Source: a virus. From it: a stretch of DNA of 46,064 nt. Position numbers and translations under genes: made by a program. Positions 1,331 to 44,563 of this stretch are shown one piece after another. Every line of letters starts with the position of its first letter. Position 1 is the stretch's first letter. The stretch is taken from the IMG/VR virus record IMGVR_UViG_3300045988_118513; one strand, given 5' to 3'. The notes below the pieces were generated by a model, which saw only the letters and a list, made by a program, of their open reading frames with translations, was not told the origin of the DNA and ran no database searches.

Positions 1331-1407
1331 GGGCATCTTTGGTGAGCGTTCGCGCGGGCGTTTAGCAGACGTGGCGCGGGTGGCAGGTCCGATTCCTGCG
1401 ATGCCTA
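1331..1407 (+). ncRNA. Degenerate full-length tRNA-like element (pseudo-tRNA shape, not a functional tRNA call)
   Basis: 7-bp acceptor GGGCATC/GATGCCT. T-arm GCAGG-TCCGATT-CCTGC (1383-1399). Long anticodon-position arm (CGCGC/GCGCG plus CGT/ACG) with 7-nt loop TTAGCAG. D region CTTTGGTGAG resembles the D-arm of the downstream elements. Irregular, 4 nt longer than canonical. Confidence 0.35.
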
Positions 1408-1482
1408 CGGGCGCGCCTAATGGTGGGTGGCGCTTATGGGTTCCCAGAGTGGGGGCCTACTGAGAATGTGAGAGGTAACATC

Positions 1483-1809
1483 ATGGCTATTTCTGAGATG
1501 ATTCGCGACCTTATGGGCTCTGATGTAGAGCCGGGTTTCATGGTTGGCGCAGGTTTGCGCGTTGTGCTCAATTCGTCGGGGACCGGGTACCTGCTCATCC
1601 GCGAGGATCGGACGATTGCCCTTGAGTGGGGCGCGGGCGGTGGAATGGTGAGCGTTACCGCGTCCGACCTATCGCCCTCCGAAAAGCGTGCGATTACGCG
1701 GGTTGTGCGTGTGATTCGCCCGGCGTTCACACCCGATTGGGGTGCGTGGGAGAGGATGTGCCGCCGGGCGCTGGGTTGTCGCGCGATGCTTGCCATGCGC
1801 CCCTTGTGA
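1483..1809 (+). CDS. Hypothetical protein (block A, 108 aa)
   Basis: ORF-track frame 1420..1809 trimmed to ATG 1483, which lies 7 nt after the conserved leader tgagaatgtgagagg (1461-1475). No recognisable domain. Confidence 0.65.
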   Translation: MAISEMIRDLMGSDVEPGFMVGAGLRVVLNSSGTGYLLIREDRTIALEWGAGGGMVSVTASDLSPSEKRAITRVVRVIRPAFTPDWGAWERMCRRALGCRAMLAMRPL

Positions 1810-1842
1810 TTGATCGTAGGGATTGATTCGGGTCCCTGGTTA

Positions 1843-1891
1843 TCCCGGCCCTAGTGGTGGGTGTGAGGTGGGTTCAATTCCCGCGCCGGGA
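1843..1891 (+). ncRNA. tRNA-like element without anticodon arm, copy 1
   Basis: Acceptor TCCCGGC/GCCGGGA. D-arm CCTAGTGGTGGG. Linker TGTGAG. T-arm GTGGG-TTCAATT-CCCGC. Followed by GC. Confidence 0.75.
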
Positions 1892-1941
1892 GCTGGCTAC
1901 CAAGGCGGTGGCCTAATTGAAAGAGGGTGAGAGGTCCGAAA

Positions 1942-2541
1942 ATGATTGACTACGATGAGACGAATCAGACGGCGCGCGAATGTGCTGATTGGATTATGGA
2001 ACAGCTTGGTCCCGAGGTCCTTACCGTTGACGCGTTCTTGGAATTCACCAACGGGTCGGGGTTTGCCCCGTATGACTGGGAAATTGATCGTTGGGTTGAT
2101 GCCTATTTCGAGTGGGCATATTCGCCCGCGTGGCAGCGCATCGTGTGGGAAGCGTGGGACGCGTGCGGACGCCCCGCTACCGAGGAGTTCTATGACCTGT
2201 ATGGCGATGAGGGTGATCCTGAGAATCGCCGTGAGGCGCAGGCGATGAGTCGCATCCTGGCTATTCAGGATATGGTTGGCCGTTTCATGGCGGGCGCGTT
2301 CGCTAGGGCGTGTTTGGCTGCGGATTGGGTGGCTATTTCGGTGAATATGGACGTTCCGCGCTGGTGGGAAGATGAGGTTGAACCTTGGTTCCCTACAGGG
2401 GATGCGTCCGAGCTTCCTAGTGGGGCGTGGCTGATTGATGGTTGCGCTTGGGATTGGTGTGAGGATGGGGACGCTGTTGAGGTGTACCCGTGCGGTTTGG
2501 CGTATCGGCTGGGCGCGGCGAGGCCCCCGGCTGTTGCCTAG
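1942..2541 (+). CDS. Hypothetical acidic, Trp-rich protein (block A, 199 aa)
   Basis: Frame 1927..2541 trimmed to ATG 1942 after leader ttgaaagagggtgagagg. Confidence 0.7.
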   Translation: MIDYDETNQTARECADWIMEQLGPEVLTVDAFLEFTNGSGFAPYDWEIDRWVDAYFEWAYSPAWQRIVWEAWDACGRPATEEFYDLYGDEGDPENRREAQAMSRILAIQDMVGRFMAGAFARACLAADWVAISVNMDVPRWWEDEVEPWFPTGDASELPSGAWLIDGCAWDWCEDGDAVEVYPCGLAYRLGAARPPAVA

Positions 2542-2554
2542 TGGTGTTTGGTTA

Positions 2555-2603
2555 TCGCGGGCTTAGTGGCGAGTTTTAGGCCGGTTCAATTCCGGTCCCG
2601 CGA
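2555..2603 (+). ncRNA. tRNA-like element without anticodon arm, copy 2
   Basis: Acceptor TCGCGGG/CCCGCGA. D-arm CTTAGTGGCGAG. Linker TTTTAG. T-arm GCCGG-TTCAATT-CCGGT. Followed by GC. Confidence 0.75.
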
Positions 2604-2666
2604 GCGGGGGCGTGTGTGGCGTGCGCACGTCCTATCACAGATCAATTGAGAATTGAGGACAAGACA

Positions 2667-3002
2667 ATGATGTTCGTGACTGAGGTTGAAGGCGACGCAC
2701 TGGAAGCTATGCAGGATGCGTGGGATGACGTGTACTCGTTCACGCGTTCGGAGCTTGGCGACGTGCCGGATTGGGCCGACTACGTGAATGCGGAGGGTGA
2801 GCTTTTTACTGAGAGCGAACTTGAAGACACGTTCGCGGATAGGCTAAATGACTGCTATGGCCCCGTTTCCGTCTGCGGATACGAATACGACGCGGGCCGT
2901 GTTCTTAGGGAGGTTGATCCCGTCGCGTTCCGTGAGGGGTTCCTGGATTGGCTTGATGCGCAGCAGAGTGATGGCGAGCTGCGCAGTATTGAGGGCCGGT
3001 AG
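2667..3002 (+). CDS. Hypothetical acidic protein, paralogue family A (PDWA-YV-DG motif)
   Basis: Frame 2616..3002 trimmed to ATG 2667 after leader ttgagaattgagg. It aligns with the products of 3591..3947 and 6211..6561 over AMQDAW...GDVPDWADYVNAEG. Confidence 0.7.
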   Translation: MMFVTEVEGDALEAMQDAWDDVYSFTRSELGDVPDWADYVNAEGELFTESELEDTFADRLNDCYGPVSVCGYEYDAGRVLREVDPVAFREGFLDWLDAQQSDGELRSIEGR

Positions 3003-3009
3003 GTTCTCA

Positions 3010-3071
3010 CCCTTGGCAAGTCGGTTGCGCGCCCTACGTGGGCGTCCTGGGTTCGATTCCTGGGCTGGGGG
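3010..3071 (+). ncRNA. tRNA-like element, variant copy 3, retaining a short anticodon-position hairpin
   Basis: Acceptor CCCTTGG/CTGGGGG (3 G:U pairs). D-like CAAGTCGGTTG. Extra hairpin CGCCC-TACGT-GGGCG (3030-3044). T-arm CCTGGG-TTCGATT-CCTGGG with wobbles. Followed by GC. Confidence 0.55.
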
Positions 3072-3125
3072 CGGGGCAACAATGGTTGTTGCCTGTTCTG
3101 AGAATGTGAGAAAGAGGTTTCTATC

Positions 3126-3479
3126 ATGACTGTTCTGCATGATATTGAGGCGGCGGCGTACGCGGTTCGACACGGGTTCGCGGGTGACATTATCCCGGTT
3201 GCGATCAACTTCAATGTTGTTCGTTTCCCGCGCCCTGAGGGTGGGGACGAATACCGCGTCTATTCGTATCGGACGCTGGTTGCGATTATGACGCGAGCGG
3301 TGGGCACTATTGGCGTGCGTGTTGACATGTGTGCGGACGCGCTGAATCACTCGGTTACGACGTCCCGGCACGTGGCGCATTTTCTGAGCGGCGTGGTGGA
3401 TGGCTACGTGGATTGGGATCGACTTAAGGCGGCGTGTGCGTCGGCTGTTGGTTCTGCGGTCGTTGTGCCCACGGTTTGA
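3126..3479 (+). CDS. Hypothetical protein (block A, 117 aa)
   Basis: ATG 3126 lies 8 nt after leader ctgagaatgtgagaaagagg. The ORF runs intact to TGA 3479. Confidence 0.7.
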   Translation: MTVLHDIEAAAYAVRHGFAGDIIPVAINFNVVRFPRPEGGDEYRVYSYRTLVAIMTRAVGTIGVRVDMCADALNHSVTTSRHVAHFLSGVVDGYVDWDRLKAACASAVGSAVVVPTV

Positions 3480-3487
3480 CGCGGGTT

Positions 3488-3537
3488 TCCCTAGCCTGTT
3501 GGTAGGTGTGATTGCAGGTTCGACCCCTGCCTAGGGA
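3488..3537 (+). ncRNA. tRNA-like element without anticodon arm, copy 4
   Basis: Acceptor TCCCTAG/CTAGGGA. D-arm CCTGTTGGTAGG. Linker TGTGATT. T-arm GCAGG-TTCGACC-CCTGC. Followed by GC. Confidence 0.8.
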
Positions 3538-3590
3538 GCTGATAGCCACGGCGGCTATCTATTCGAGATTTGAGAGTGAGTGTGAATGAT

Positions 3591-3947
3591 ATGGCGACTC
3601 GAATCATGCTCCCGTGTGACGGTTTTTCGCCCGCGTGGGAGTGGCTGAGCGTGTGGCAGTTGGAGGCCCTGCAGGATTGGTGGGGTACTAGTGCCCGGCT
3701 GGTTCGTGAGAGCGTGGGCGCGCCCGATTGGGCTGAGTACGTGGACAAGGATGGTGCGGCTTGGTCCCGTGAGGGATTGCTGGTGCGACTGGTCTTTGAC
3801 GCAATTGACCTGTACGGCGAAACGCATGTCGATACGATGATTAAGGATATCGGCAATGATGGCATGGTCGAGATGCTTGACGGGTGGATTGATGCCCGCG
3901 TGTTTCGCGGTGACCTGGTTCGCCTTGTTGGCGAGGGCGAGGCATGA
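3591..3947 (+). CDS. Hypothetical acidic protein, paralogue family A
   Basis: Frame 3570..3947 trimmed to ATG 3591 after leader ttgagagtgagtgtgaatg. Motif LEALQDWW...GAPDWAEYVDKDG. Confidence 0.7.
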   Translation: MATRIMLPCDGFSPAWEWLSVWQLEALQDWWGTSARLVRESVGAPDWAEYVDKDGAAWSREGLLVRLVFDAIDLYGETHVDTMIKDIGNDGMVEMLDGWIDARVFRGDLVRLVGEGEA

Positions 3948-4294
3948 TCATGTGTGACATAAGTAGGGATGCGCTGAAAACCTTGGTTGAGCGGGCGCGT
4001 GAGGATGAGACGTTCCCTGGCTACTTCCTGTACTGCCAGGTCGGCATTAGCGGCGTGCGATCATCGTACGGATGGGTTGACTGTGACGGTTTTCTGCGCA
4101 CGTGTGATGACTTGGTGGATGAGTATGAGGCCGAGTTAGATCGCGAGGGTGCGAGCCTGGGGCTTGGTTCGGATGAGTTGCTGGGTGGCGCGATGCGCGG
4201 GATTGATCCGACTGGGTTCGATATCGCGGTTGGCATGTACATTGATCGGCTGGTTGCGCAGGGCATGCTAATCCCCCTGTATTACGCGGACTAG
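3944..4294 (+). CDS. Hypothetical acidic protein (116 aa)
   Basis: The ATG overlaps the upstream stop (ATGA), suggesting translational coupling. No domain recognised. Confidence 0.65.
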   Translation: MIMCDISRDALKTLVERAREDETFPGYFLYCQVGISGVRSSYGWVDCDGFLRTCDDLVDEYEAELDREGASLGLGSDELLGGAMRGIDPTGFDIAVGMYIDRLVAQGMLIPLYYAD

Positions 4295-4305
4295 CGGCGC
4301 AAATA

Positions 4306-4354
4306 TCCCGGCCCTGTTGGTAGGTGTGATAAGGGTTCGACCCCCTTGCCGGGA
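4306..4354 (+). ncRNA. tRNA-like element without anticodon arm, copy 5
   Basis: Acceptor TCCCGGC/GCCGGGA. D-arm CCTGTTGGTAGG. Linker TGTGAT. T-arm AAGGG-TTCGACC-CCCTT. Followed by AC. Confidence 0.8.
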
Positions 4355-4456
4355 ACTGGGCGCGTGCCATCCGGCGCGAGCCCCGTCCTGCCCTGCGGAA
4401 TGACGATTGTCTGTAGGGTGGGGCATCATGAGACTAGCGGAAAGTGAGAAAAACTC

Positions 4457-4837
4457 ATGAGTGAACTGAACATTGTCAAGGCGAAGATCAACGGCACTGA
4501 GTACGAGCTCGTGAACATGACGCCGCACCCGGTCACTGTCTACGAGATGGATGGCGCGACCCCCGTTGTGACGGTCCCGTCGTCGGGTATGGTGCGTGTC
4601 GCTGAGACCGTGCGGGTCTGCTGCGAAGGTGAGGGTGAGGTTGCGCTGGTTGATATCGAGCGCGACCCGGATCATATCGAGGGACTGCCCGGCTACAATG
4701 AGGATCGATACGTGATCGTTTCCGACCTCGCCTATCAGGCCGCTAAGCCCCTTGGGCGTGATGACCTGCTGCGTCCCGGCCCCGCGGTTCGCGATGCGCG
4801 GGGGCGCATTATTGGCTGCAAGGGCCTCGCCATCTGA
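4457..4837 (+). CDS. Hypothetical protein (126 aa)
   Basis: ATG 4457 after leader ggaaagtgagaaaaactc. A 10-codon upstream mini-ORF (4427-4459) ends in an ATGA overlap with this start. Confidence 0.7.
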   Translation: MSELNIVKAKINGTEYELVNMTPHPVTVYEMDGATPVVTVPSSGMVRVAETVRVCCEGEGEVALVDIERDPDHIEGLPGYNEDRYVIVSDLAYQAAKPLGRDDLLRPGPAVRDARGRIIGCKGLAI

Positions 4838-4855
4838 CGGCGTAGGGGGGCGGGA

Positions 4856-4966
4856 GTGAGTCTACAAGATGACTGCATGGACCAAGCTCAGCGAATGCTT
4901 GGCGATAGTGCAACTCTAGTCGAGATTGAACAGCTCGCTAAGAAACTGTTCTACGGTGAGGTCTAA
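4856..4966 (+). CDS. Possible small ORF (36 aa, GTG start)
   Basis: Hand translation gives VSLQDDCMDQAQRMLGDSATLVEIEQLAKKLFYGEV. It fills the gap between 4837 and tRNA-like copy 6. It is below the ORF-track size cut-off and the RBS is weak. Confidence 0.3.
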   Translation: MSLQDDCMDQAQRMLGDSATLVEIEQLAKKLFYGEV

Positions 4967-4978
4967 CGACTTTCACCC

Positions 4979-5028
4979 TCCCTGGCCTAATGGTAGGTGT
5001 GAAGGTGGGTTCGATTCCCATCCAGGGA
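4979..5028 (+). ncRNA. tRNA-like element without anticodon arm, copy 6
   Basis: Acceptor TCCCTGG/CCAGGGA. D-arm CCTAATGGTAGG. Linker TGTGAAG. T-arm GTGGG-TTCGATT-CCCAT. Followed by GC. Confidence 0.8.
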
Positions 5029-5079
5029 GCGAGGGCGGCCAAAGCGGGTGCCCGTTTCGAGAGAAAGTGTGAACACATC

Positions 5080-5274
5080 ATGGAAATTACGTTCGACAAC
5101 CAGGCGCTTATTGTAATGGCGCTTGAGGCGCACATTAGGTCCCTGAATGAGGGGCGCGAGGCACTTAACGACACGTACATTAGCGGGGTGATTGATGAGC
5201 GCATCGCCGCTATCGCGCCGGTCCTTGATGCGCTCACATCCGGGGATTACTACCTCGAATTGCAGGAAGTGTGA
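5080..5274 (+). CDS. Hypothetical small helical protein (64 aa)
   Basis: Frame 4990..5274 trimmed to ATG 5080 after leader tcgagagaaagtgtgaac. The longer ORF-track version would read through tRNA-like copy 6. Confidence 0.65.
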   Translation: MEITFDNQALIVMALEAHIRSLNEGREALNDTYISGVIDERIAAIAPVLDALTSGDYYLELQEV

Positions 5275-5292
5275 GCCTGAGCGGTGCGGTTA

Positions 5293-5342
5293 TCCCTAGC
5301 CTGACGGCAGGTGTGGATACGGGTTCGACCCCCGTCTAGGGA
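5293..5342 (+). ncRNA. tRNA-like element without anticodon arm, copy 7
   Basis: Acceptor TCCCTAG/CTAGGGA. D-arm CCTGACGGCAGG. Linker TGTGGAT. T-arm ACGGG-TTCGACC-CCCGT. Followed by GC. Confidence 0.8.
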
Positions 5343-5400
5343 GCGACGGGCAGATGTCACGGTGGCATTGCCTGAGTACATGGAATAGGAGACTGAGGAA

Positions 5401-6078
5401 ATGAGTGGCGACAAGATTGTTCGCGTGACGAATCAGGGTGAGCTGGATGAGGCGTTGAAGGCCGACCCGTCTGATGACGTGGTGATCGTGATTGATTCGG
5501 ACCCTGGCAAGCGCGTTCCGATCTACATTTTCGTGATGGACTCGCGCGGGCATGCGATTGAGGCGCGGGGCGAGTCTCGTGTGGTCGTGTCGAATGGGGC
5601 GCGGCTGACGGCGAGAGGCCGGAGCATGGTTACCGCACGGGATGCGGCGTGCGTGCATGCGACGGACTTTGCACAGGTGCACTGGTATGACAGTTCTACC
5701 GGCACATGCGGATACTATGCGCGCGGCGAGGTGTGGGACACGGCGACCGTCGAAACCCACTCGCTCTGCCCCCTGTTCGCATCCATCAGTGCTGAGGTGA
5801 CGGTGCGGGGCGCTTCCCGCGTGGTGGCGCAGGGTGACGCGTCCGTGTATGCCTACAACCAGGCGGTTGTCGAAATGAGTGGCGACGTTGACGTGACGGC
5901 TTACGGTCAGTCGGTTGTCTACTGTGAGGGCGGCGAGGTGTATGCGCACGAACACGCGACGGTGTACGTGTTGAAGGGTGCGGACAGGGCGAGCGTTGAG
6001 GGTGTGCCGACTGTGGTTGTGCATGACCTTGCGGGTGATACGCCTGTGACGGGTGGGCCGGTCGTGCTTACCGTGTGA
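5401..6078 (+). CDS. Hypothetical repeat protein with 8-residue periodicity (beta-solenoid-like, 225 aa)
   Basis: ATG 5401 after ggaataggagactgaggaa. Runs of octads appear: RVVVSNGA RLTARGRS MVTARDAA CVHATDFA ... RVVAQGDA SVYAYNQA VVEMSGDV DVTAYGQS VVYCEGGE. Confidence 0.75.
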   Translation: MSGDKIVRVTNQGELDEALKADPSDDVVIVIDSDPGKRVPIYIFVMDSRGHAIEARGESRVVVSNGARLTARGRSMVTARDAACVHATDFAQVHWYDSSTGTCGYYARGEVWDTATVETHSLCPLFASISAEVTVRGASRVVAQGDASVYAYNQAVVEMSGDVDVTAYGQSVVYCEGGEVYAHEHATVYVLKGADRASVEGVPTVVVHDLAGDTPVTGGPVVLTV

Positions 6079-6097
6079 CGGGGGTGTTGGCCCTGGT

Positions 6098-6147
6098 TCC
6101 CAGGCTTAGGGGTGAGTGTTTAGGCGGGTTCGATTCCCGCCCTGGGA
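6098..6147 (+). ncRNA. tRNA-like element without anticodon arm, copy 8
   Basis: Acceptor TCCCAGG/CCTGGGA. D-arm CTTAGGGGTGAG. Linker TGTTTAG. T-arm GCGGG-TTCGATT-CCCGC. Followed by GC. Confidence 0.8.
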
Positions 6148-6210
6148 GCAGGTTCGCGACCAGCAGGGTTGCGGGCCGTATTGAAAGCTGAGTGTGAAAG
6201 GTGGTGCCCC

Positions 6211-6561
6211 ATGAGGGATACCAGCAAGTGCAAGACGATGGCGGCGGGCGAGTACATGACGCCCGAACAGGTGGCGGCGCTGCAGGCGTCGTGGGACGAG
6301 GCTGAGTACGTGCTGCGTGACTCGGCGGGCGCACCCGAGTGGGCGCAGTTTATTGACCATGACGGTGTTGCGTACTCGATTGAAGCTCTCGCGGAGGAAT
6401 GGCTGCGAGACGGAGTGGAGGACGGCGAGCTAGGGCCGAAGGAGCTGCTGATTGCGCTTTCCCCGCAGCTCGTATCCAGAATGATCATGGATCACATTAT
6501 CGAGAGGGTTGAAGCGGGCAAGCTGCGCGCGGTCGTTGACTCGCCCGACGAGTGGAACTGA
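6211..6561 (+). CDS. Hypothetical acidic protein, paralogue family A
   Basis: Frame 6169..6561 trimmed to ATG 6211 after leader ttgaaagctgagtgtgaaaggtgg. Motif VAALQASW...GAPEWAQFIDHDG. Confidence 0.7.
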   Translation: MRDTSKCKTMAAGEYMTPEQVAALQASWDEAEYVLRDSAGAPEWAQFIDHDGVAYSIEALAEEWLRDGVEDGELGPKELLIALSPQLVSRMIMDHIIERVEAGKLRAVVDSPDEWN

Positions 6562-6842
6562 TCGTGGATACTGATAGCCCGAATGCGGCATGGTTTAGGG
6601 CCATGAAATGGGCAACCTTGGCAAATGATGTTGACTATGTGCGAGAGAGTCTTGACCTAAAACTGTTCCGGGAGGGCGTTCGCCACAAGCGCGACGAGCT
6701 GGGCGACCGGCTGGGAGACTCCCCCGAGGCGAGCATGGTTCGCGTGCATGCGCGTGCCGCGCTCGGGGCGCTGGATCATCTAGCCAGCTCGCTTGAAAAC
6801 CTGGCGAACCTGATCGACCCAGACGCGCAGGCAGGATCATAA
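6552..6842 (+). CDS. Hypothetical protein (96 aa, GTG start overlapping the upstream stop)
   Basis: ORF-track 6552..6842. An alternative GTG lies at 6564. No domain recognised. Confidence 0.55.
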   Translation: MELIVDTDSPNAAWFRAMKWATLANDVDYVRESLDLKLFREGVRHKRDELGDRLGDSPEASMVRVHARAALGALDHLASSLENLANLIDPDAQAGS

Positions 6843-6875
6843 GTGCAAGATTGAGAAACGGAAGGTAGTGTGAAC

Positions 6876-7400
6876 ATGGCTTGGTATGACAAGCGCGAGG
6901 TCGCAATGATGGTGACCCGCATCATGGAAACGTGGGAACGCCGATACAATGACACGCTCAGCGAGGACGCCAAGTCCGAGGGATGGAGCGTCGTGTACGA
7001 ACCGCCCGCGGACAGGCTGCGCACGCACTCGATGCGCCTCGTCCAGCTCAAGGGAGACGACCCCAAGGATGTTGCGGAGGAGCGGACGTTCCACATCTTC
7101 CACGGCCCCCTGACGGAGACCATCGTGCGCGAGATGCGTGCGAGCGGTAAGTGGGAGCTGGGGCGCGAATGGCACGTGCCCGTGGAAGCCCGATTCGGGG
7201 CGCTCATGTGGCTGAATCGGTGCAGCCCGGCGACGTCGCACGAATTGCCCGACGCGACGGGCGAGTTCTGGCGTGGCCCCAGCGGGGAGCGACAGTACGG
7301 CGACCACGGGCTGACCCTCGGAATCCTGTACGCGAATTGGCTCTCGGCCAAGGTTGCGCCGCGACGTCGCAGGCTCGCGCAGATGCAGACCGTGGCCTGA
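6876..7400 (+). CDS. Hypothetical protein (174 aa)
   Basis: Frame 6870..7400. ATG 6876 follows leader ttgagaaacggaaggtagtgtgaac. Confidence 0.7.
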   Translation: MAWYDKREVAMMVTRIMETWERRYNDTLSEDAKSEGWSVVYEPPADRLRTHSMRLVQLKGDDPKDVAEERTFHIFHGPLTETIVREMRASGKWELGREWHVPVEARFGALMWLNRCSPATSHELPDATGEFWRGPSGERQYGDHGLTLGILYANWLSAKVAPRRRRLAQMQTVA

Positions 7401-14071: not shown

Positions 14072-14464
14072 ATGGAACAGGATAGCCCTCAGCCCGTAGG
14101 GGCTGACGAGACATTCAGGAGAATGGGCGAAGCTTGCAAAGCGTTGTACGATGCCGCAAACCCGCCCGGCGAACAACTCCAAATCCCCATCCAGGGGATC
14201 GGTGAAACCCTCATCGGAGAGCGGGGACTAAGGAATCTCCCATACGGCACAATGTTGCGCGCAAGCTCCCCGTACCTGGTCGGGCCAAACCTGTATGTGC
14301 GCATCAAGGGCATTGGTAGTCGGCAGTGGGTAAACGGATATGGGCATACACTGTCCAGTCTTGATGTGTTCACAAACCTTGTGAACGAGGTCCGCTTTGA
14401 CGGCACTATCACAACCCTCACCTACGGGGCTCACACCATCGAAGAACTGCAGGCGAAACCGTAA
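14072..14464 (+). CDS. Hypothetical protein, family B member 13
   Basis: RBS gagggagg. Aligns with member 5 (KALYDAANPP...IGERGLRNLPYGTML...DGTITTLTYG). Confidence 0.75.
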   Translation: MEQDSPQPVGADETFRRMGEACKALYDAANPPGEQLQIPIQGIGETLIGERGLRNLPYGTMLRASSPYLVGPNLYVRIKGIGSRQWVNGYGHTLSSLDVFTNLVNEVRFDGTITTLTYGAHTIEELQAKP

Positions 14465-14473
14465 CACACACAT

Positions 14474-14564
14474 GGGGCGAGGCCCCGCGATAACCAGCAC
14501 CAACCAAACCCCACACCGGGGCAAGGAAGGCGCACGGCTATCGCGGGGCCTCGCCCCTTTTCTC
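14474..14564 (+). terminator. Perfect 19-bp inverted repeat (14474-14492 / 14539-14557) followed by TTTTCTC; the right arm alone also forms a compact terminator hairpin
   Basis: GGGGCGAGGCCCCGCGATA ... TATCGCGGGGCCTCGCCCC then tttt. The alternative fold is GGGGC-ctc-GCCCC plus a U-tract. It lies between block B and int. Confidence 0.6.
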
Positions 14565-14630
14565 ATGCCCGCAAAACAGGCAACGTCGTGCTACATTACA
14601 GGCAACACCCCCACGGAAAGGTCACACGTC

Positions 14631-15827
14631 ATGGCTAGGCGAGCGCTCCAACCAGGCGAACTCGGCAACATCACCACCACCAAAGTCAGCAAACAAGGCC
14701 GAGCCTGGACCGTCAACCCGGACGGCACCCACTGGCGGGCAAGCGTCCTCATCGGCCATTGCGGCGACACTCCCAAACGCATCCGCACAATCGCAACCAG
14801 CAAACGCCAAGCCGTAAGGCAATGCGAGGAACAAGCCAAACAACACATTGACGACGCGAAACGCGCGTCAGGCGTCATCACCGGAGCGTCCACGCCACGG
14901 GAAGTCTGGGACGCATACGCGCGGTCGCGTCGCCACCAGGCCCTCGCCCCGGCCACCAGGCGCAACTACGAGACCGCCATAGCCGACAGCCAACATGAAA
15001 ACCCGCACTGGTGGAACCTCCCCCTCAACGAAGCCATCACCGTATCAGCCCTCACCACGCTCTACGACGGGTACGTCGCCAAGCACGGGTGCGGGCGCGC
15101 TAGGACCAGCCTGCGGGCCGCGCTAGGCGTCGCCCTCAAGCTCGCATCCGACGCCATTAACCTGTCCCCATTCCACGCCACACGCCCCACAGACACGCCC
15201 ATCACAAACCCCGTCCGCGCACGACTGGACACTGACCGCATCCTCCCTCCCGAGGAAATGCGCGATCTCGTCACCGCGCTTGAACGGTACGACGCGAAAC
15301 GAATCCCCGAACGAGACGCAGTAGACGCTCTCGTCCTCCAAGCCCACCTTGGCCTGCGAGCGGGAGAGTTGTTCTCTCTCGCGTGGGGCAACATCGACCT
15401 CCGCGAGGGGACCGTGCGCGGCGTCGAATCCCGCAAGACCCACCGCACGTACCCAGATAAGACCCTGCCCGAATGGCAGGCCGACAGGCTGCGTGCCAGG
15501 GCCAAGAAAGCCACCCGCACAGGCAAGGACGTGCGCCTGTTCGACCGGGCACAAGCAACCATGTACCGCGAGTGCCGACTCCTCCTTAACAAGGTAGGCC
15601 ACCCAGGCCTGTCAATCCACGGCATCCGTAAATCCGTAGGCAGCATCGTCTTTGACACTTACGGGGCAAGGGCGGCGGCGGCGTGGCTCGCACACGCTAA
15701 CGTTCAGACCACTATCGCCTATTACGTGAAGCTCGACGGCGCAATGCCGGAAGGCCCCGTCGACCTGCTCAATCGTGGCGAACAGGAAAACAGGCAGCAA
15801 ACAGGCAATGCGCCGTCAGGCGAGTAG
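14631..15827 (+). CDS. int: Tyrosine integrase (398 aa)
   Basis: Frame 14397..15827 trimmed to ATG 14631 (RBS ggaaagg). The longer form would read through the terminator. Catalytic-type motifs: GLRAGELFSLAWGNIDL, HGIRKSVGS and AHANVQTTIAYY. Confidence 0.85.
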   Translation: MARRALQPGELGNITTTKVSKQGRAWTVNPDGTHWRASVLIGHCGDTPKRIRTIATSKRQAVRQCEEQAKQHIDDAKRASGVITGASTPREVWDAYARSRRHQALAPATRRNYETAIADSQHENPHWWNLPLNEAITVSALTTLYDGYVAKHGCGRARTSLRAALGVALKLASDAINLSPFHATRPTDTPITNPVRARLDTDRILPPEEMRDLVTALERYDAKRIPERDAVDALVLQAHLGLRAGELFSLAWGNIDLREGTVRGVESRKTHRTYPDKTLPEWQADRLRARAKKATRTGKDVRLFDRAQATMYRECRLLLNKVGHPGLSIHGIRKSVGSIVFDTYGARAAAAWLAHANVQTTIAYYVKLDGAMPEGPVDLLNRGEQENRQQTGNAPSGE

Positions 15828-16049: not shown

Positions 16050-16316
16050 CTAATCCACGCCCCCTGTTCGAGTTGCATAAACCCGAGAATGTGCTAAGCG
16101 ACCAAGCGCTGTTAGCGCCTGCAATTTACAGGCACCCAGCTCGCCGCGCAGGAGACGCAAGCATGCGACCGTATTGTCAAGCGAGTCGTGGCCGCACATG
16201 CGAGCCGACACGACAAGCAACAGGTCAGCCGCCACAATCGCCTCCCTATACTCCTCAACCTCGGCACGCAGGCCACGTTCAATCACGTTGAGACGATCAT
16301 GCACCGGGTCAGTCAT
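16050..16316 (-). CDS. Hypothetical protein (88 aa)
   Basis: ORF track. The start overlaps the upstream stop by 4 nt. It is the last gene before the terminator. Confidence 0.5.
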   Translation of the reverse strand: MTDPVHDRLNVIERGLRAEVEEYREAIVAADLLLVVSARMCGHDSLDNTVACLRLLRGELGACKLQALTALGRLAHSRVYATRTGGVD

Positions 16317-16696
16317 AGGGTCACCTCCAAAGGATAATCGTCCAGGCCGTCATCCAGTGGGCGGCCGTTTAGGAACTCGCACATCTTCCTCACACCGCGA
16401 AACTCCCAACGGCGCACAGTCATCAGCGGCATGCCGAGCGCAGCAGCAACTTCCTCCTGTGTCGCCATGAGGATTAGCCGGTTGCCAATCACGTTTCGCT
16501 CGTCCTGGTCAAGCGCCCAGTAGGCGCGCTGAGCGTCCGCGCACATGGCCATCATGTCACCGCCCTCAGACGGGTCGCGCTTAGCCCTCGGCATGCCATC
16601 CTCAATGTGCGTCTCGGATAGGCTCACGCCCCACCCGCGCTGCTTGTCGAACGCAAGCGGTAGCAGTCTTACGATCATTCCGGGGTCGTATCGCAT
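16313..16696 (-). CDS. DNA-binding protein with sigma-70 region-4-like HTH
   Basis: ATQEEVAAALGMPLMTVRRWEFRGVRKMCEFL resembles ECF-sigma region 4. A GGGGG..AGGAAA RBS is present. Confidence 0.5.
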   Translation of the reverse strand: MRYDPGMIVRLLPLAFDKQRGWGVSLSETHIEDGMPRAKRDPSEGGDMMAMCADAQRAYWALDQDERNVIGNRLILMATQEEVAAALGMPLMTVRRWEFRGVRKMCEFLNGRPLDDGLDDYPLEVTL

Positions 16697-44389: not shown

Positions 44390-44479
44390 GGCCCCAGATG
44401 CTCCACCTACACCTGGCAGGGTAAGACGCCCTTCACAAAAACACAGGCGCGCCGAAACGCAACCCCATCAACACACAAG

Positions 44480-44563
44480 TACCCGTGGCGGGACTCGAAC
44501 CCGCACGCCCCCAGGGCGCCACATTTTGAGTGTGGTGTGTCTACCCAATTCCACCACACGGGC
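44480..44563 (-). tRNA. tRNA-Leu(CAA): tRNA-Leu (anticodon CAA), type II with long variable arm, no encoded CCA
   Basis: Hand-folded: acceptor GCCCGTG/CACGGGT; D stem GTG/CAC with GG loop; anticodon stem CCACA/TGTGG with loop CTCAAAA; variable arm CGCCC-tgg-GGGCG; T-arm GCGGG-TTCGAGT-CCCGC; discriminator A. Confidence 0.9.

Follow-up and report, generated by a model that had tools for sequence, protein, structure and literature searches.

Why should a phage operon carry, after almost every gene, an RNA shaped like a tRNA that cannot decode? The question is raised by IMG/VR record IMGVR_UViG_3300045988_118513, a 46,064-nt stretch of DNA (the window) from a temperate phage whose host is human oral Actinomycetaceae. 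In the first plus-strand operon of this phage, a tRNA-shaped RNA element and a hairpin follow almost every gene, and most of the elements lack an anticodon arm. The original prediction, made from the letters alone, had described eight such elements punctuating an operon of small genes; the coordinates given for them all hold, and the array is real and larger than first stated, with a ninth element, downstream hairpins, and a family of copies in related phages. The elements are tRNA-like folds under structural selection on the sense strand. Full-text literature searches found no description of a phage system with such a layout, in agreement with the original remark that none was known, and the conserved combination of element and hairpin in a phage operon appears to be undescribed. 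The interpretation first offered, which ranged from transcript processing to recombination, is partly supported as a whole.

Elements, hairpins, and their shared fold

The eight elements first listed are intergenic, and direct reading of the sequence places each 7-33 nt after a stop codon and ∼50-102 nt before the next start, as had been described. In the following list, R1 is a covariance model built from the alignment of the seven standard copies.

1331-1406, + strand: e0, full-length tRNA-like element, array head (fold, relatives)
1409-1435, + strand: hairpin after e0 (MFE fold of the 45 nt downstream)
1843-1891, + strand: e1, anticodon-arm-less tRNA mimic (R1 70.6 bits; fold)
1895-1913, + strand: hairpin after e1, 7 bp, loop AAGGC (MFE fold)
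2555-2603, + strand: e2, anticodon-arm-less tRNA mimic, UCGC/GCGA acceptor variant (R1 63.1 bits)
2607-2633, + strand: hairpin after e2, 11 bp, loop GGCGU (orthologue pairing)
3010-3071, + strand: e3, variant tRNA-like element (fold; relatives; R1 only 9.7 bits)
3074-3094, + strand: hairpin after e3 (MFE fold)
3488-3537, + strand: e4, anticodon-arm-less tRNA mimic (R1 69.1 bits)
3541-3559, + strand: hairpin after e4, 7 bp, loop ACGGC (MFE fold)
4306-4354, + strand: e5, anticodon-arm-less tRNA mimic, then AC (R1 69.5 bits)
4355-4386, + strand: hairpin after e5 (MFE fold)
4979-5028, + strand: e6, anticodon-arm-less tRNA mimic (R1 74.3 bits)
5033-5053, + strand: hairpin after e6 (MFE fold)
5293-5342, + strand: e7, anticodon-arm-less tRNA mimic (R1 68.7 bits)
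5343-5377, + strand: hairpin after e7 (MFE fold)
6098-6147, + strand: e8, anticodon-arm-less tRNA mimic, last of the array (R1 71.1 bits)
6151-6177, + strand: hairpin after e8, 11 bp (MFE fold)

Seven copies (1843, 2555, 3488, 4306, 4979, 5293, and 6098) are readily alignable, measure 49-50 nt, and share one architecture: the acceptor stem has 7 bp, the D-hairpin, which contains GG, has 3 bp, and a linker of 6-7 nt leads to a T-arm of 5 bp whose loop reads UUCGA. That one fold fits seven of the eight copies, as predicted, is borne out by 100% pairing, compared with 31-59% in shuffled and slid controls, and 8 of the 15 pairs have changed on both sides. The acceptor stem is exactly 7 bp with positions -1 and 73 unpaired, the T stem contains an invariant G53:C61, the T-loop reads UUCGA or UUCAA, and the D-loop GG is kept. 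With filters off, R1 scores the seven copies at 63-74 bits (E 1e-15 to 1e-19), the next best match in the 46-kb window at 15 bits, and the reverse strand at element sites at no more than 11 bits. The plentiful compensatory changes and the far higher score of the sense strand uphold the claim that selection acts on a folded RNA; G:U pairs are also common, and on the opposite strand these become A/C mismatches.

Decoding by the elements is impossible, and neither ARAGORN nor Rfam called a tRNA at any of them, as had been expected. At relaxed thresholds, Rfam matched the elements only as T-arm fragments of tmRNA. The single real tRNA called by both programs is Leu-CAA (44479-44563, minus strand).

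Two members depart from this pattern. The ninth element, e0, was absent from the original list and lies before the first gene. Its acceptor stem is 7 bp long and includes G1:U72, its D-loop UUUGGUGAG is stemless, and its long anticodon-like hairpin carries an invariant loop, UUAGCAG; the T-arm is GCAGG-UCCGAUU-CCUGC, and A73-C74 come directly after the element. In relatives e0 is conserved with compensatory changes, and its orthologue is called 'tRNA-Ala(AGC)' by ARAGORN in L001, L003, L023, and L027, with no call in the present phage; Rfam tRNA models give e0 only 15-19 bits, below threshold. The third listed copy, e3, is not degenerate but a conserved variant (L001, L002, L035, and L037): its D-hairpin, GCAA-GUCGG-UUGC, has 4 bp, a further hairpin of 6 bp with a 5-nt loop is present, and the loop of its T-arm is UUCGAUU.

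The family in related phages

The family is conserved across many related phages of oral Actinomycetaceae and comprises ∼190 distinct copies on 86 uncultured-phage contigs, with up to eight per contig. Covariation, which the original prediction had expected to persist as more homologues were aligned, proved strong, with 98.7% of cells paired and double-sided changes in 13 of 15 pairs, a level reached by 0 of 500 shuffles. Scattering as a host MITE was tested by a genome-wide pattern scan combined with the covariance model. The family is not a host MITE because it was found neither in 185,579 bacterial genomes (pattern scan; chance-level single matches, none model-confirmed) nor in GenBank phages.

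Placement is equally regular, with 86% of 256 copies starting 0-40 nt after a sense stop codon (sense ORFs of at least 50 aa) versus 20% for antisense and 16% for random positions. Across the family, pairs 5-7 of the acceptor stem vary freely, and pairs 1-4 hardly change: of 191 copies, 130 have UCCC/GGGA and 26 have UCGC/GCGA. A first pair described as always T:A is indeed present in seven of the eight copies here and, as U1:A72, in 80 of 91 distinct family members, so that only "always" fails; C2:G71 occurs in 87 of 91, C4:G69 in 86 of 91, and G1:C72 variants in 18 of 191 copies. The GC said to follow the element holds for its C, since a purine at 73 and C at 74 are found in ∼99% of copies; the G is not fixed (A73 in ∼40%), and the general form is R73-C74. 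The real tRNA-Leu of the phage also has C directly after it. Upstream, U or A is favored at -1, where C occurs at 2%, and G(-4)G(-3) is common.

A conserved, covarying hairpin stands 3-5 nt after every element. Hairpins of at least 6 bp beginning within 6 nt downstream occur in 91% of 173 distinct flanks versus 62% of shuffles, and the hairpin after e2 is paired in 253 of 253 cells among 23 distinct orthologues, with compensatory changes.

Putative processing by host tRNA enzymes

The elements appear to mimic the upper half of a tRNA, with a 12-bp acceptor/T-arm helix and a D-loop/T-loop elbow, and their 7-bp acceptor, 5-bp T stem, T-loop, and D-loop GG correspond to the features gauged by RNase P, RNase Z, and the CCA-adding enzyme. 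There is about an even chance that they act in cis, as tRNA mimics at which host RNase P and either RNase Z or RNase E cut, and, jointly, that the early polycistronic RNA is split at them into units with protected ends, by analogy with plant-mitochondrial t-elements. No intrinsic terminators were found between the operon genes and no phage-encoded RNA-processing enzyme was detected, which fits a single transcript and processing by host enzymes.

The elements would be transcribed within the first plus-strand polycistronic mRNA of the phage, and host tRNA-end-maturation enzymes would recognize each of them and cut at its borders, RNase P at -1/+1, and either RNase Z or the RNase E of actinobacteria, with its preference for RR|C, between discriminator R73 and C74. 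After the 3′ cut, a compact tRNA-like cap would close the upstream cistron; the cap would have a 1-nt overhang and might be extended by CCA addition. The downstream cistron would have a stable hairpin 3-5 nt from its new 5′ end, so that two protected ends would arise from a single cut and the stability and expression of adjoining early genes would be uncoupled. RNase P cleavage, later or alternatively, would free a ∼50-nt tRNA-like RNA and open the upstream message to decay, and through e0 the first cistron would acquire a processed 5′ end like that of the other cistrons. If cut as proposed, a long phage transcript would become separately stabilized messages by means of host tRNA-processing enzymes.

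Processing, a 3′ cap, and a decoy function, three of the four hypotheses first offered, are all compatible with the data; we favor the first two combined, with cleavage at R73|C74, in the gap that separates the element from its downstream hairpin. This site agrees with the RR|CNU sequence preferred by mycobacterial RNase E (PMC10641625) and with the position after the discriminator at which RNase Z usually cuts (PMC1920247). The unpaired leader and trailer, with U or A and little C at -1, are favorable for RNase P cleavage; leader-trailer pairing is a known anti-determinant (PMC9433436; PMC5602109). Several observations count against processing, including G(-4)G(-3), which is disfavored by E. 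coli RNase P when 3′ ACCA is present (PMC5602109). An RNase P cut would leave an unstructured 3′ tail on the upstream mRNA, some junctions of this operon (3947/3950, 4837/4856, and all genes after 6177) do without an element, and processing alone does not explain the near-fixed acceptor pairs 1-4. C74 also counts against it, because CCA begins with this base and the complete CCA inhibits the RNase Z of B. subtilis.

Plant-mitochondrial t-elements are a tested precedent, as RNase P and RNase Z cuts at their borders make mRNA 5′ and 3′ ends and released t-elements can gain non-encoded C or CCA (Forner et al. 2007; PMC1920247). Like the phage elements, they are non-decoding tRNA-like folds beside protein-coding genes, and their T-arm GGTTCRANYCC is conserved, but they are organellar, scattered, single, non-canonical cloverleaves of ∼74 nt, whereas the phage elements are uniform in length, lack the anticodon arm, stand 7-9 in series, and are hairpin-coupled, with cleavage here predicted. 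In animal mitochondria, tRNA-shaped units at nearly every gene junction of a polycistronic transcript are excised by RNase P and RNase Z; those units are functional tRNAs, unlike the phage elements. RNase P and/or RNase Z cuts at tRNA-like structures also define flanking RNA ends in MALAT1/MEN-beta mascRNA and the MHV68 vtRNA-pre-miRNA, and in MHV68 hairpins follow directly after the tRNA-like unit, but these eukaryotic or herpesviral units keep an anticodon-like arm, are single, and do not lie between protein-coding cistrons. In the phage T7 early operon, structured intercistronic RNase III sites split the polycistronic mRNA and leave stabilizing 3′ structure, although these are long, RNase III-recognized hairpins without tRNA mimicry. 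The tRNA-like domain of tmRNA and the tRNA-like module of the bacterial Y-RNA YrlA are also tRNA mimics, built from acceptor stem, D-loop, and T-arm and devoid of a decoding anticodon arm (PMC4201824). Both are single genes rather than intercistronic repeats; tmRNA has G3:U70, a tag ORF, and pseudoknots, and YrlA has a loop-closed acceptor end and a Ro-binding stem.

Competing explanations

The near-fixed acceptor end bears most on a trans-acting product, an unlikely reading that nonetheless outranks the other rivals. Here the array would yield many ∼50-nt CCA-tailed acceptor-arm mimics early in infection, processing would only release them, and they would titrate or misdirect some host factor that recognizes tRNAs by the acceptor end or the elbow; candidates include GatCAB amidotransferase (or non-discriminating AspRS/GluRS), EF-Tu, the CCA-adding enzyme, and a defense toxin aimed at the acceptor end. 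Conservation at acceptor pairs 1-4 and at the discriminator far exceeds what structure by itself would require, and the first operon, with its 7-9 copies per transcript, is the usual site of takeover and anti-defense genes. In bacteria, U1-A72 with G73 is the mark of tRNA-Asn and tRNA-Gln, and the amidotransferase determinant is U1-A72 (PMC9976931), a resemblance that leaves room for a decoy role. However, such a product requires neither strict one-per-junction placement after stops nor a tightly coupled hairpin, and the G1:C72 and A73 variants exist.

Somewhat less likely still, element and hairpin may be a passive insulator that only blocks 3′ exonucleases, RNase E scanning, or Rho loading, with no specific tRNA enzymes and a shape inherited from a tRNA ancestor. 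In its favor, each intergenic gap, ∼150 nt of untranslated RNA within the operon, is taken up by two stable structures side by side. Yet the MFE z-scores of the elements are unremarkable, and stability as such is therefore not under selection, whereas nucleotides useful in tertiary interactions but not for simple stability (D-loop GG, UUCGA T-loop, and G53:C61) are conserved, as is the exact 7+5 bp geometry with unpaired -1 and 73.

Recombination boundaries for cassettes, the fourth hypothesis first offered, or a tRNA-derived repeat that moves or duplicates along with cassettes, are improbable. Homology breakpoints between phages do fall within 25 nt of an element in 54% of cases versus 17% at random, but they also cluster at element-less junctions (3925 and 4825), as is usual in phage mosaicism, and recombination boundaries thus gain no specific support. 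Compensatory substitutions and G:U pairs indicate selection on sense-strand folded RNA rather than on sequence identity, target-site duplications are absent, copies are absent outside the early operon and from host genomes, and the integrase of the phage, encoded 8 kb away, is of the ordinary tyrosine type. Integron attC sites are likewise structured, sequence-variable repeats in same-orientation arrays after small promoterless genes, but each is an imperfect hairpin that carries R/L boxes and is recombined by IntI in ssDNA form, whereas the phage elements have a tRNA-like fold with G:U pairs pointing to RNA, IntI is absent, and direct reading found no R/L boxes.

Functionless remnants of tRNA genes or attP-type tRNA fragments are very improbable despite clear tRNA ancestry (T-arm, D-loop) and the resemblance of e0 and e3 to intermediate forms with central arms, because pseudogenes would decay rather than keep their pairing by compensatory change, and position, strand, C74, and hairpin are all conserved.

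Two further observations favor the cassette reading: the content of cassettes varies among relatives, and paralogous genes within the array (2667-3002, 3591-3947, and 6211-6561) indicate that cassettes have duplicated. The element was kept in 67 of 84 pairs with only the upstream flank in common and in 35 of 126 with only the downstream flank in common, and H(E|U) was below H(E|D) at three thresholds, a comparison confounded by relatedness and unequal cluster numbers. Element type thus tracks the upstream flank more than the downstream one, which counts in favor of host processing and suggests that the exchange unit is hairpin-leader-ORF-element, the mature mRNA predicted under that reading.

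The array and its fold

The window is a complete phage genome of 46,064 bp, since in two related viral contigs its last bases continue straight into its first bases, and it originates from a human oral metagenome assembly (ENA ERZ989398 / PRJEB6997). The minus strand carries genes for the small and large terminase, portal, capsid, tail, tape-measure protein, and endolysin, together with DNA polymerase, exonuclease, DnaB, RusA, primase, and a sigma-like protein. The plus strand carries, from 1.4 kb on, about 25 small genes of unknown function and an HTH/Xis-like gene. No phage in GenBank is similar at the DNA level, megablast with positions 1400-7000 returned no match, and the large terminase is ∼50% identical to those of Streptomyces phages. 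A close relative is a prophage adjoining glnA-uvrC-rapZ-whiA-gap-pgk, on a contig that encodes a GAPDH with 97% identity to an NCBI protein bearing the name Actinomycetaceae; the host is therefore an oral Actinomyces/Schaalia-type bacterium. In a related prophage (L186, 10001-21170, on an Actinomycetaceae contig), the integrase gene lies 60 nt from the 3′ end of a glutamine synthetase gene, and no tRNA gene was found at the integration junction, so attB is not a tRNA there. The features discussed below are as follows.

1331-1406, plus strand: e0, a tRNA-like element 5′ of the first gene
1843-6147, plus strand: e1-e8, a series of eight tRNA-like elements
3010-3071, plus strand: e3, the variant third copy
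14397-15827, plus strand: tyrosine integrase gene (PF00589/phrog_1), 8 kb downstream of the array
16313-16696, minus strand: small phage protein with sigma-70 region 4 (PF04545, phrog_3512)
44479-44563, minus strand: tRNA-Leu(CAA), in the late operon just upstream of the large terminase gene

The original prediction described an array of eight elements, and all eight intervals hold what was described there, but the ninth, e0, had been overlooked. Seven copies share one fold, as had been proposed: they align easily with MAFFT (alignment A1) and fit a common structure. In it, an acceptor stem of 7 bp is followed by a D-hairpin (3 bp, loop GG), and a linker of 6-7 nt then leads to a T-arm of 5 bp whose loop is UUCGA or UUCAA. 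The elements are uniform in length at 49-50 nt and stand in series seven to nine times. The compensatory stem changes that had been noticed are fully borne out, with 100% pairing across the seven copies and changes on both sides at 8 of the 15 pairs, compared with 31-59% pairing when partners were shuffled or slid. A covariance model built from the seven copies (R1), run with filters off, gave them 63-74 bits, compared with 15 bits for the best other site in the genome and no more than 11 bits for the reverse complements of the element sites.

Consistent with the expectation that these elements would escape tRNA detection, ARAGORN and Rfam called no tRNA at any element in the window and left tRNA-Leu(CAA) as its only real tRNA. 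This tRNA, also carried by relatives, does not encode CCA and has discriminator A followed by C, the same as the tRNA-like elements. In one related contig (L025, 2802-2880), ARAGORN mis-called an anticodon-less element and its upstream flank as "tRNA-Gly(CCC)", and automated annotation may occasionally label such elements tRNAs.

The other two elements depart from this fold. Copy e3, a distinct variant kept in relatives, carries an additional hairpin (6 bp, 5-nt loop) besides its D-hairpin and T-arm. Element e0 has a 7-bp acceptor stem and a T-arm; its D-loop (UUUGGUGAG) has no stem, and the loop of its long central hairpin, UUAGCAG, is invariant. Its orthologues in four relatives are called "tRNA-Ala(AGC)" by ARAGORN, yet an alanine tRNA with A34 is abnormal for bacteria, e0 lacks G3:U70, and it scores 15-19 bits with Rfam tRNA models whose thresholds are 29-47; it is treated here as a tRNA-like element and not as a tRNA.

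Conservation and distribution of the family

Scanning IMG/VR and metagenome contigs for exact patterns and then applying the covariance model recovered 112 and 198 matches; these reduce to ∼190 distinct sequences of element plus flank, which lie on 86 contigs at up to eight per contig. The contigs derive mostly from human oral assemblies and in a few cases from environmental ones, and the family is abundant in human oral metagenomes. In 91 distinct copies, pairing holds in 98.7% of cells and double-sided changes occur at 13 of 15 pairs, in an alignment that was fitted to the model and hence leans toward it; the MAFFT alignment A1 gives the same pattern independently. None of 500 shuffles reached the observed values, and slid partners were paired in 30-59% of cells. 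Placement is equally regular, with 86% of 256 copies starting 0-40 nt after the stop codon of a sense ORF of at least 50 aa, compared with 20% for the opposite strand and 16% for positions chosen at random.

The helix formed by an acceptor stem of exactly 7 bp and the 5-bp T stem is a 12-bp coaxial stack, the helix gauged by RNase P, RNase Z, and the CCA-adding enzyme. All 91 distinct copies have G53:C61, and the D-loop GG and the UUCGA/UUCAA loop are near-invariant in three element alignments (A1, A3, and A5). Together these nucleotides (G53:C61, the T-loop UUCGA, and the D-loop GG) form the tRNA elbow; they add nothing to the stability of a simple hairpin. Acceptor pairs 1-4 hardly change between copies (U1:A72, C2:G71, C or G at 3:70, and C4:G69), and pairs 5-7 and the outer T-stem pairs are free to vary. 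Bacterial tRNA-Asn and tRNA-Gln are marked by U1-A72 with G73, which is the amidotransferase determinant (PMC9976931); the fixed acceptor end may reflect ancestry from a tRNA-Asn/Gln-like tRNA or selection for an identity feature.

The element is accompanied by a hairpin downstream, the two forming a module. In a related contig of lower GC (L014), the same module follows two early genes, with elements at 835-884 and 1853-1902, and one of these genes is homologous to that at 3126-3479 in the window (SVTTSRH motif; the window gene weakly matches DUF8033), which shows that the module crosses host-GC boundaries. The possibility, raised at the outset, that the elements are a host-derived MITE scattered in host genomes found no support: 185,579 species-representative bacterial and archaeal genomes yielded no model-confirmed element, the 62 hits to the one exact pattern scanned being isolated, in unrelated phyla, and close to chance expectation. 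No elements occur in the 10-kb host flank of prophage L186, and BLAST of GenBank with one 58-nt element query (e6) returned no phage copies, with T-arm matches in real tRNAs only. The element is thus phage-specific, restricted to the start of one operon, and no host MITE.

Relation to known tRNA-like structures

The feature is real, strongly supported, and widespread, and it appears new to description and best classed among tRNA-like processing signals. The upper half of a canonical tRNA is present (7 + 5 bp stack, T-loop UUCRANY, G53:C61, and D-loop G18G19), but the four-arm cloverleaf is absent: the 6-7 nt linker replaces the anticodon arm in seven copies, the e3 loop has 5 nt rather than the 7 nt of an anticodon loop, and ARAGORN and Rfam make no call. 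The tRNA-like domain of tmRNA, which comes with a tag reading frame and pseudoknots, does not fit either, with pair 3:70 being C:G (68 copies) or G:C (18) and not the alanine identity pair G3:U70. ARAGORN found no tmRNA, and the only Rfam matches to the elements at E ≤ 10 are 15-17 nt fragments of the tmRNA T-arm, which score 10-12 bits where the threshold is 47.

Bacterial Y RNA (YrlA), whose 5′ and 3′ ends form a Ro-binding stem and whose tRNA-like module has a closed acceptor end, gave no Rfam match at E ≤ 10, and the acceptor ends of the elements are open and continuous with the mRNA. Integron attC sites were rejected because the sole integrase is of the phage tyrosine type, 8 kb away, IntI is absent, and the borders read GGUU/UCCC...GGGA/RC with none of the R boxes sought (RYYYAAC ... 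GTTRRRY). Viral tRNA-like structures, which can be aminoacylated, have a pseudoknotted acceptor arm, and stand at the 3′ terminus of a genomic RNA, were set aside as well, the elements being internal to a DNA-phage operon, with a plain 7-bp acceptor helix and no encoded CCA.

In being non-decoding folds at the sense-strand borders of protein-coding units, the elements resemble t-elements and tRNA punctuation. Their closest functional analogues are the t-elements of plant mitochondria, for which cleavage by RNase P and RNase Z and C/CCA tailing have been shown experimentally (PMC1920247). Other analogues include animal mitochondrial tRNA punctuation, MALAT1/mascRNA, and the vtRNA-hairpin units of MHV68, and the RNase III sites of phage T7 are alike in the logic of cutting an early operon. 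The elements differ from these analogues in being phage-borne, in having no anticodon arm at all, and in being uniform 49-50 nt units repeated seven to nine times, each with a hairpin and an invariant C74. A full-text literature search, with most subscription journals outside its coverage, found no description of such a layout.

Proposed processing of the early transcript and competing readings

Each element has a purine at position 73 and C at 74 (∼99% of copies), with a hairpin 3-5 nt later. In one hairpin class, comprising 23 distinct orthologues, 253 of 253 cells are paired and pairing is kept through A:U, G:C, and G:U exchanges, so the hairpin is under structural selection. Across 173 distinct flanks, a hairpin of at least 6 bp starts within 6 nt downstream in 91%, compared with 62% of shuffles. 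A longer acceptor stem through -1:73 or -2:74 was considered and rejected: there is no covariation, -1 and 73 are not paired in about half of copies, and the U/C at -2:74 is unable to pair. Position -1 is U or A in 85% of copies and avoids C (2%). Leader-trailer pairing, a known anti-determinant of RNase P (PMC9433436, PMC5602109), is absent around the elements. The R73/C74 step fits the usual RNase Z site, 3′ of the discriminator (PMC1920247), and also the RR/C(NU) preference of mycobacterial RNase E (PMC10641625); the phage tRNA-Leu is likewise followed by C.

Intrinsic terminators and sigma-70 promoters between the genes do not exceed shuffle expectation, and no plus-strand gene has a Pfam or PHROGs match to an RNase, CCA-adding enzyme, or RNA ligase; most simply read, a single early transcript would therefore be cut at every module by nucleases of the host. 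That the elements are processing signals for host tRNA-maturation nucleases, as first proposed among four hypotheses, has in our judgement about an even chance of being correct, and we infer all of its enzymatic steps. The geometry suggests that the decisive single cut would fall between R73 and C74, leaving the upstream cistron with a compact tRNA-like 3′ cap and starting the downstream cistron just before the hairpin. A 5′-proximal hairpin is a classical protection against 5′-end-dependent decay, and e0 would provide gene 1 with a 5′ end of the kind that the other genes have. From the substrate features checked (12-bp helix, elbow, unpaired -1/73, and R73), a cut by RNase P at -1/+1 would also be expected; it would free a 50-nt RNA and uncap the upstream message, possibly serving as a timer.

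Linkage between elements and their flanks is weakly in favor of the upstream flank and is consistent with this unit. Module pairs with only the upstream flank in common carry the same element in 67 of 84 cases, and those with only the downstream flank in common in 35 of 126. At the cluster level, H(E|U) is lower than H(E|D) at three thresholds, a comparison confounded by relatedness and unequal cluster numbers.

Several other readings can be weighed, and those of processing signal, decoy, insulator, recombination boundary, and remnant are not mutually exclusive. A trans-acting decoy RNA would account for the many copies and for an acceptor end that hardly varies, but not for the strict cis placement or the coupling of hairpin to element, and is unlikely. 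A passive structural insulator, which leaves the conservation of elbow nucleotides and the exact helix length unexplained, is a rather poor prospect. It is also quite doubtful that the spacers are themselves the payload, in which case excised, CCA-tailed 50-nt mimics of acceptor and elbow would sequester or misdirect a host tRNA-reading factor while doubling as processing signals. Each early transcript would then release seven to nine mimics with a tRNA-Asn/Gln signature (U1:A72, purine-73), with candidate targets being an acceptor-end-targeting anti-phage toxin or the GatCAB transamidosome, which Actinomycetaceae without AsnRS/GlnRS would need.

Recombination boundaries, another of the initial hypotheses, or a selfish repeat are improbable. 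Although 54% of inter-phage homology breakpoints lie within 25 nt of modules compared with 17% at random, breakpoints cluster equally at gene junctions without elements, so the test does not discriminate, and what the substitutions preserve is an RNA fold, not an identical sequence. Remnants of a tRNA or attP in decay are contradicted by the covariation and have almost nothing to recommend them.

If the elements are processed as the host-nuclease reading holds, they would be, as far as we could find, the first tRNA punctuation in a phage, and the first in a bacterial transcription unit, using dedicated non-decoding mini-tRNAs. Phages would then use the essential, hard-to-evade tRNA maturation of the host to tune the ratios of early messages and how long they last, and the ∼50-nt element with its hairpin would offer a compact natural part for multiplexed transcript processing in Actinobacteria, comparable to engineered tRNA-gRNA arrays. 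The fixed acceptor-end sequence points to possible RNA decoys against tRNA-reading host factors or defenses. Owing to its abundance in human oral metagenomes, the family is open to experiment with Actinomyces or Schaalia lysogens and to study in existing oral metatranscriptomes.

Three genes within the array region (2667-3002, 3591-3947, and 6211-6561) are paralogous, sharing the motifs EALQD-W...G-PDWA-YVD-DG and, at the C-terminus, D-I...G-L; they have no Pfam match, the first alone matches unannotated PHROGs, and no match to a family of known function was found. Cassettes thus duplicate, which may explain the multiplication of modules. Purine-rich leaders (GAGAATGTGAGA or GTGTGAA) stand just 5′ of many plus-strand starts (for example, 1462-1473 and 3100-3111), where the classical GGAGG is absent; GAGAATGTGAGA as a common leader motif was dropped, being exact before genes 1 and 4 only and not enriched when two mismatches were allowed.

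The protein with sigma-70 region 4 may change which promoters the host RNA polymerase uses during part of the cycle. The non-coding region joining both genome ends contains a 21-bp unit (ATAAGATAGAAACCATGAGCC) repeated 3.2 times at 97% identity (52-119), followed by (AT)9 and the C-rich tract CCCCCCCTACCCCCC (182-200 and 205-222), and may be an origin, packaging, or regulatory region. Upstream of e0, direct reading of the plus strand from 470 to 1100 reveals TTGACA/TTGACG boxes at ∼470, 813, 936, 1014, and 1050, and TTAATTG occurs four times with a period of ∼13 nt at 616-715, the only four copies in the genome, compared with 1.7 expected genome-wide. These sites resemble a cluster of early promoters together with operator or iteron sequences.
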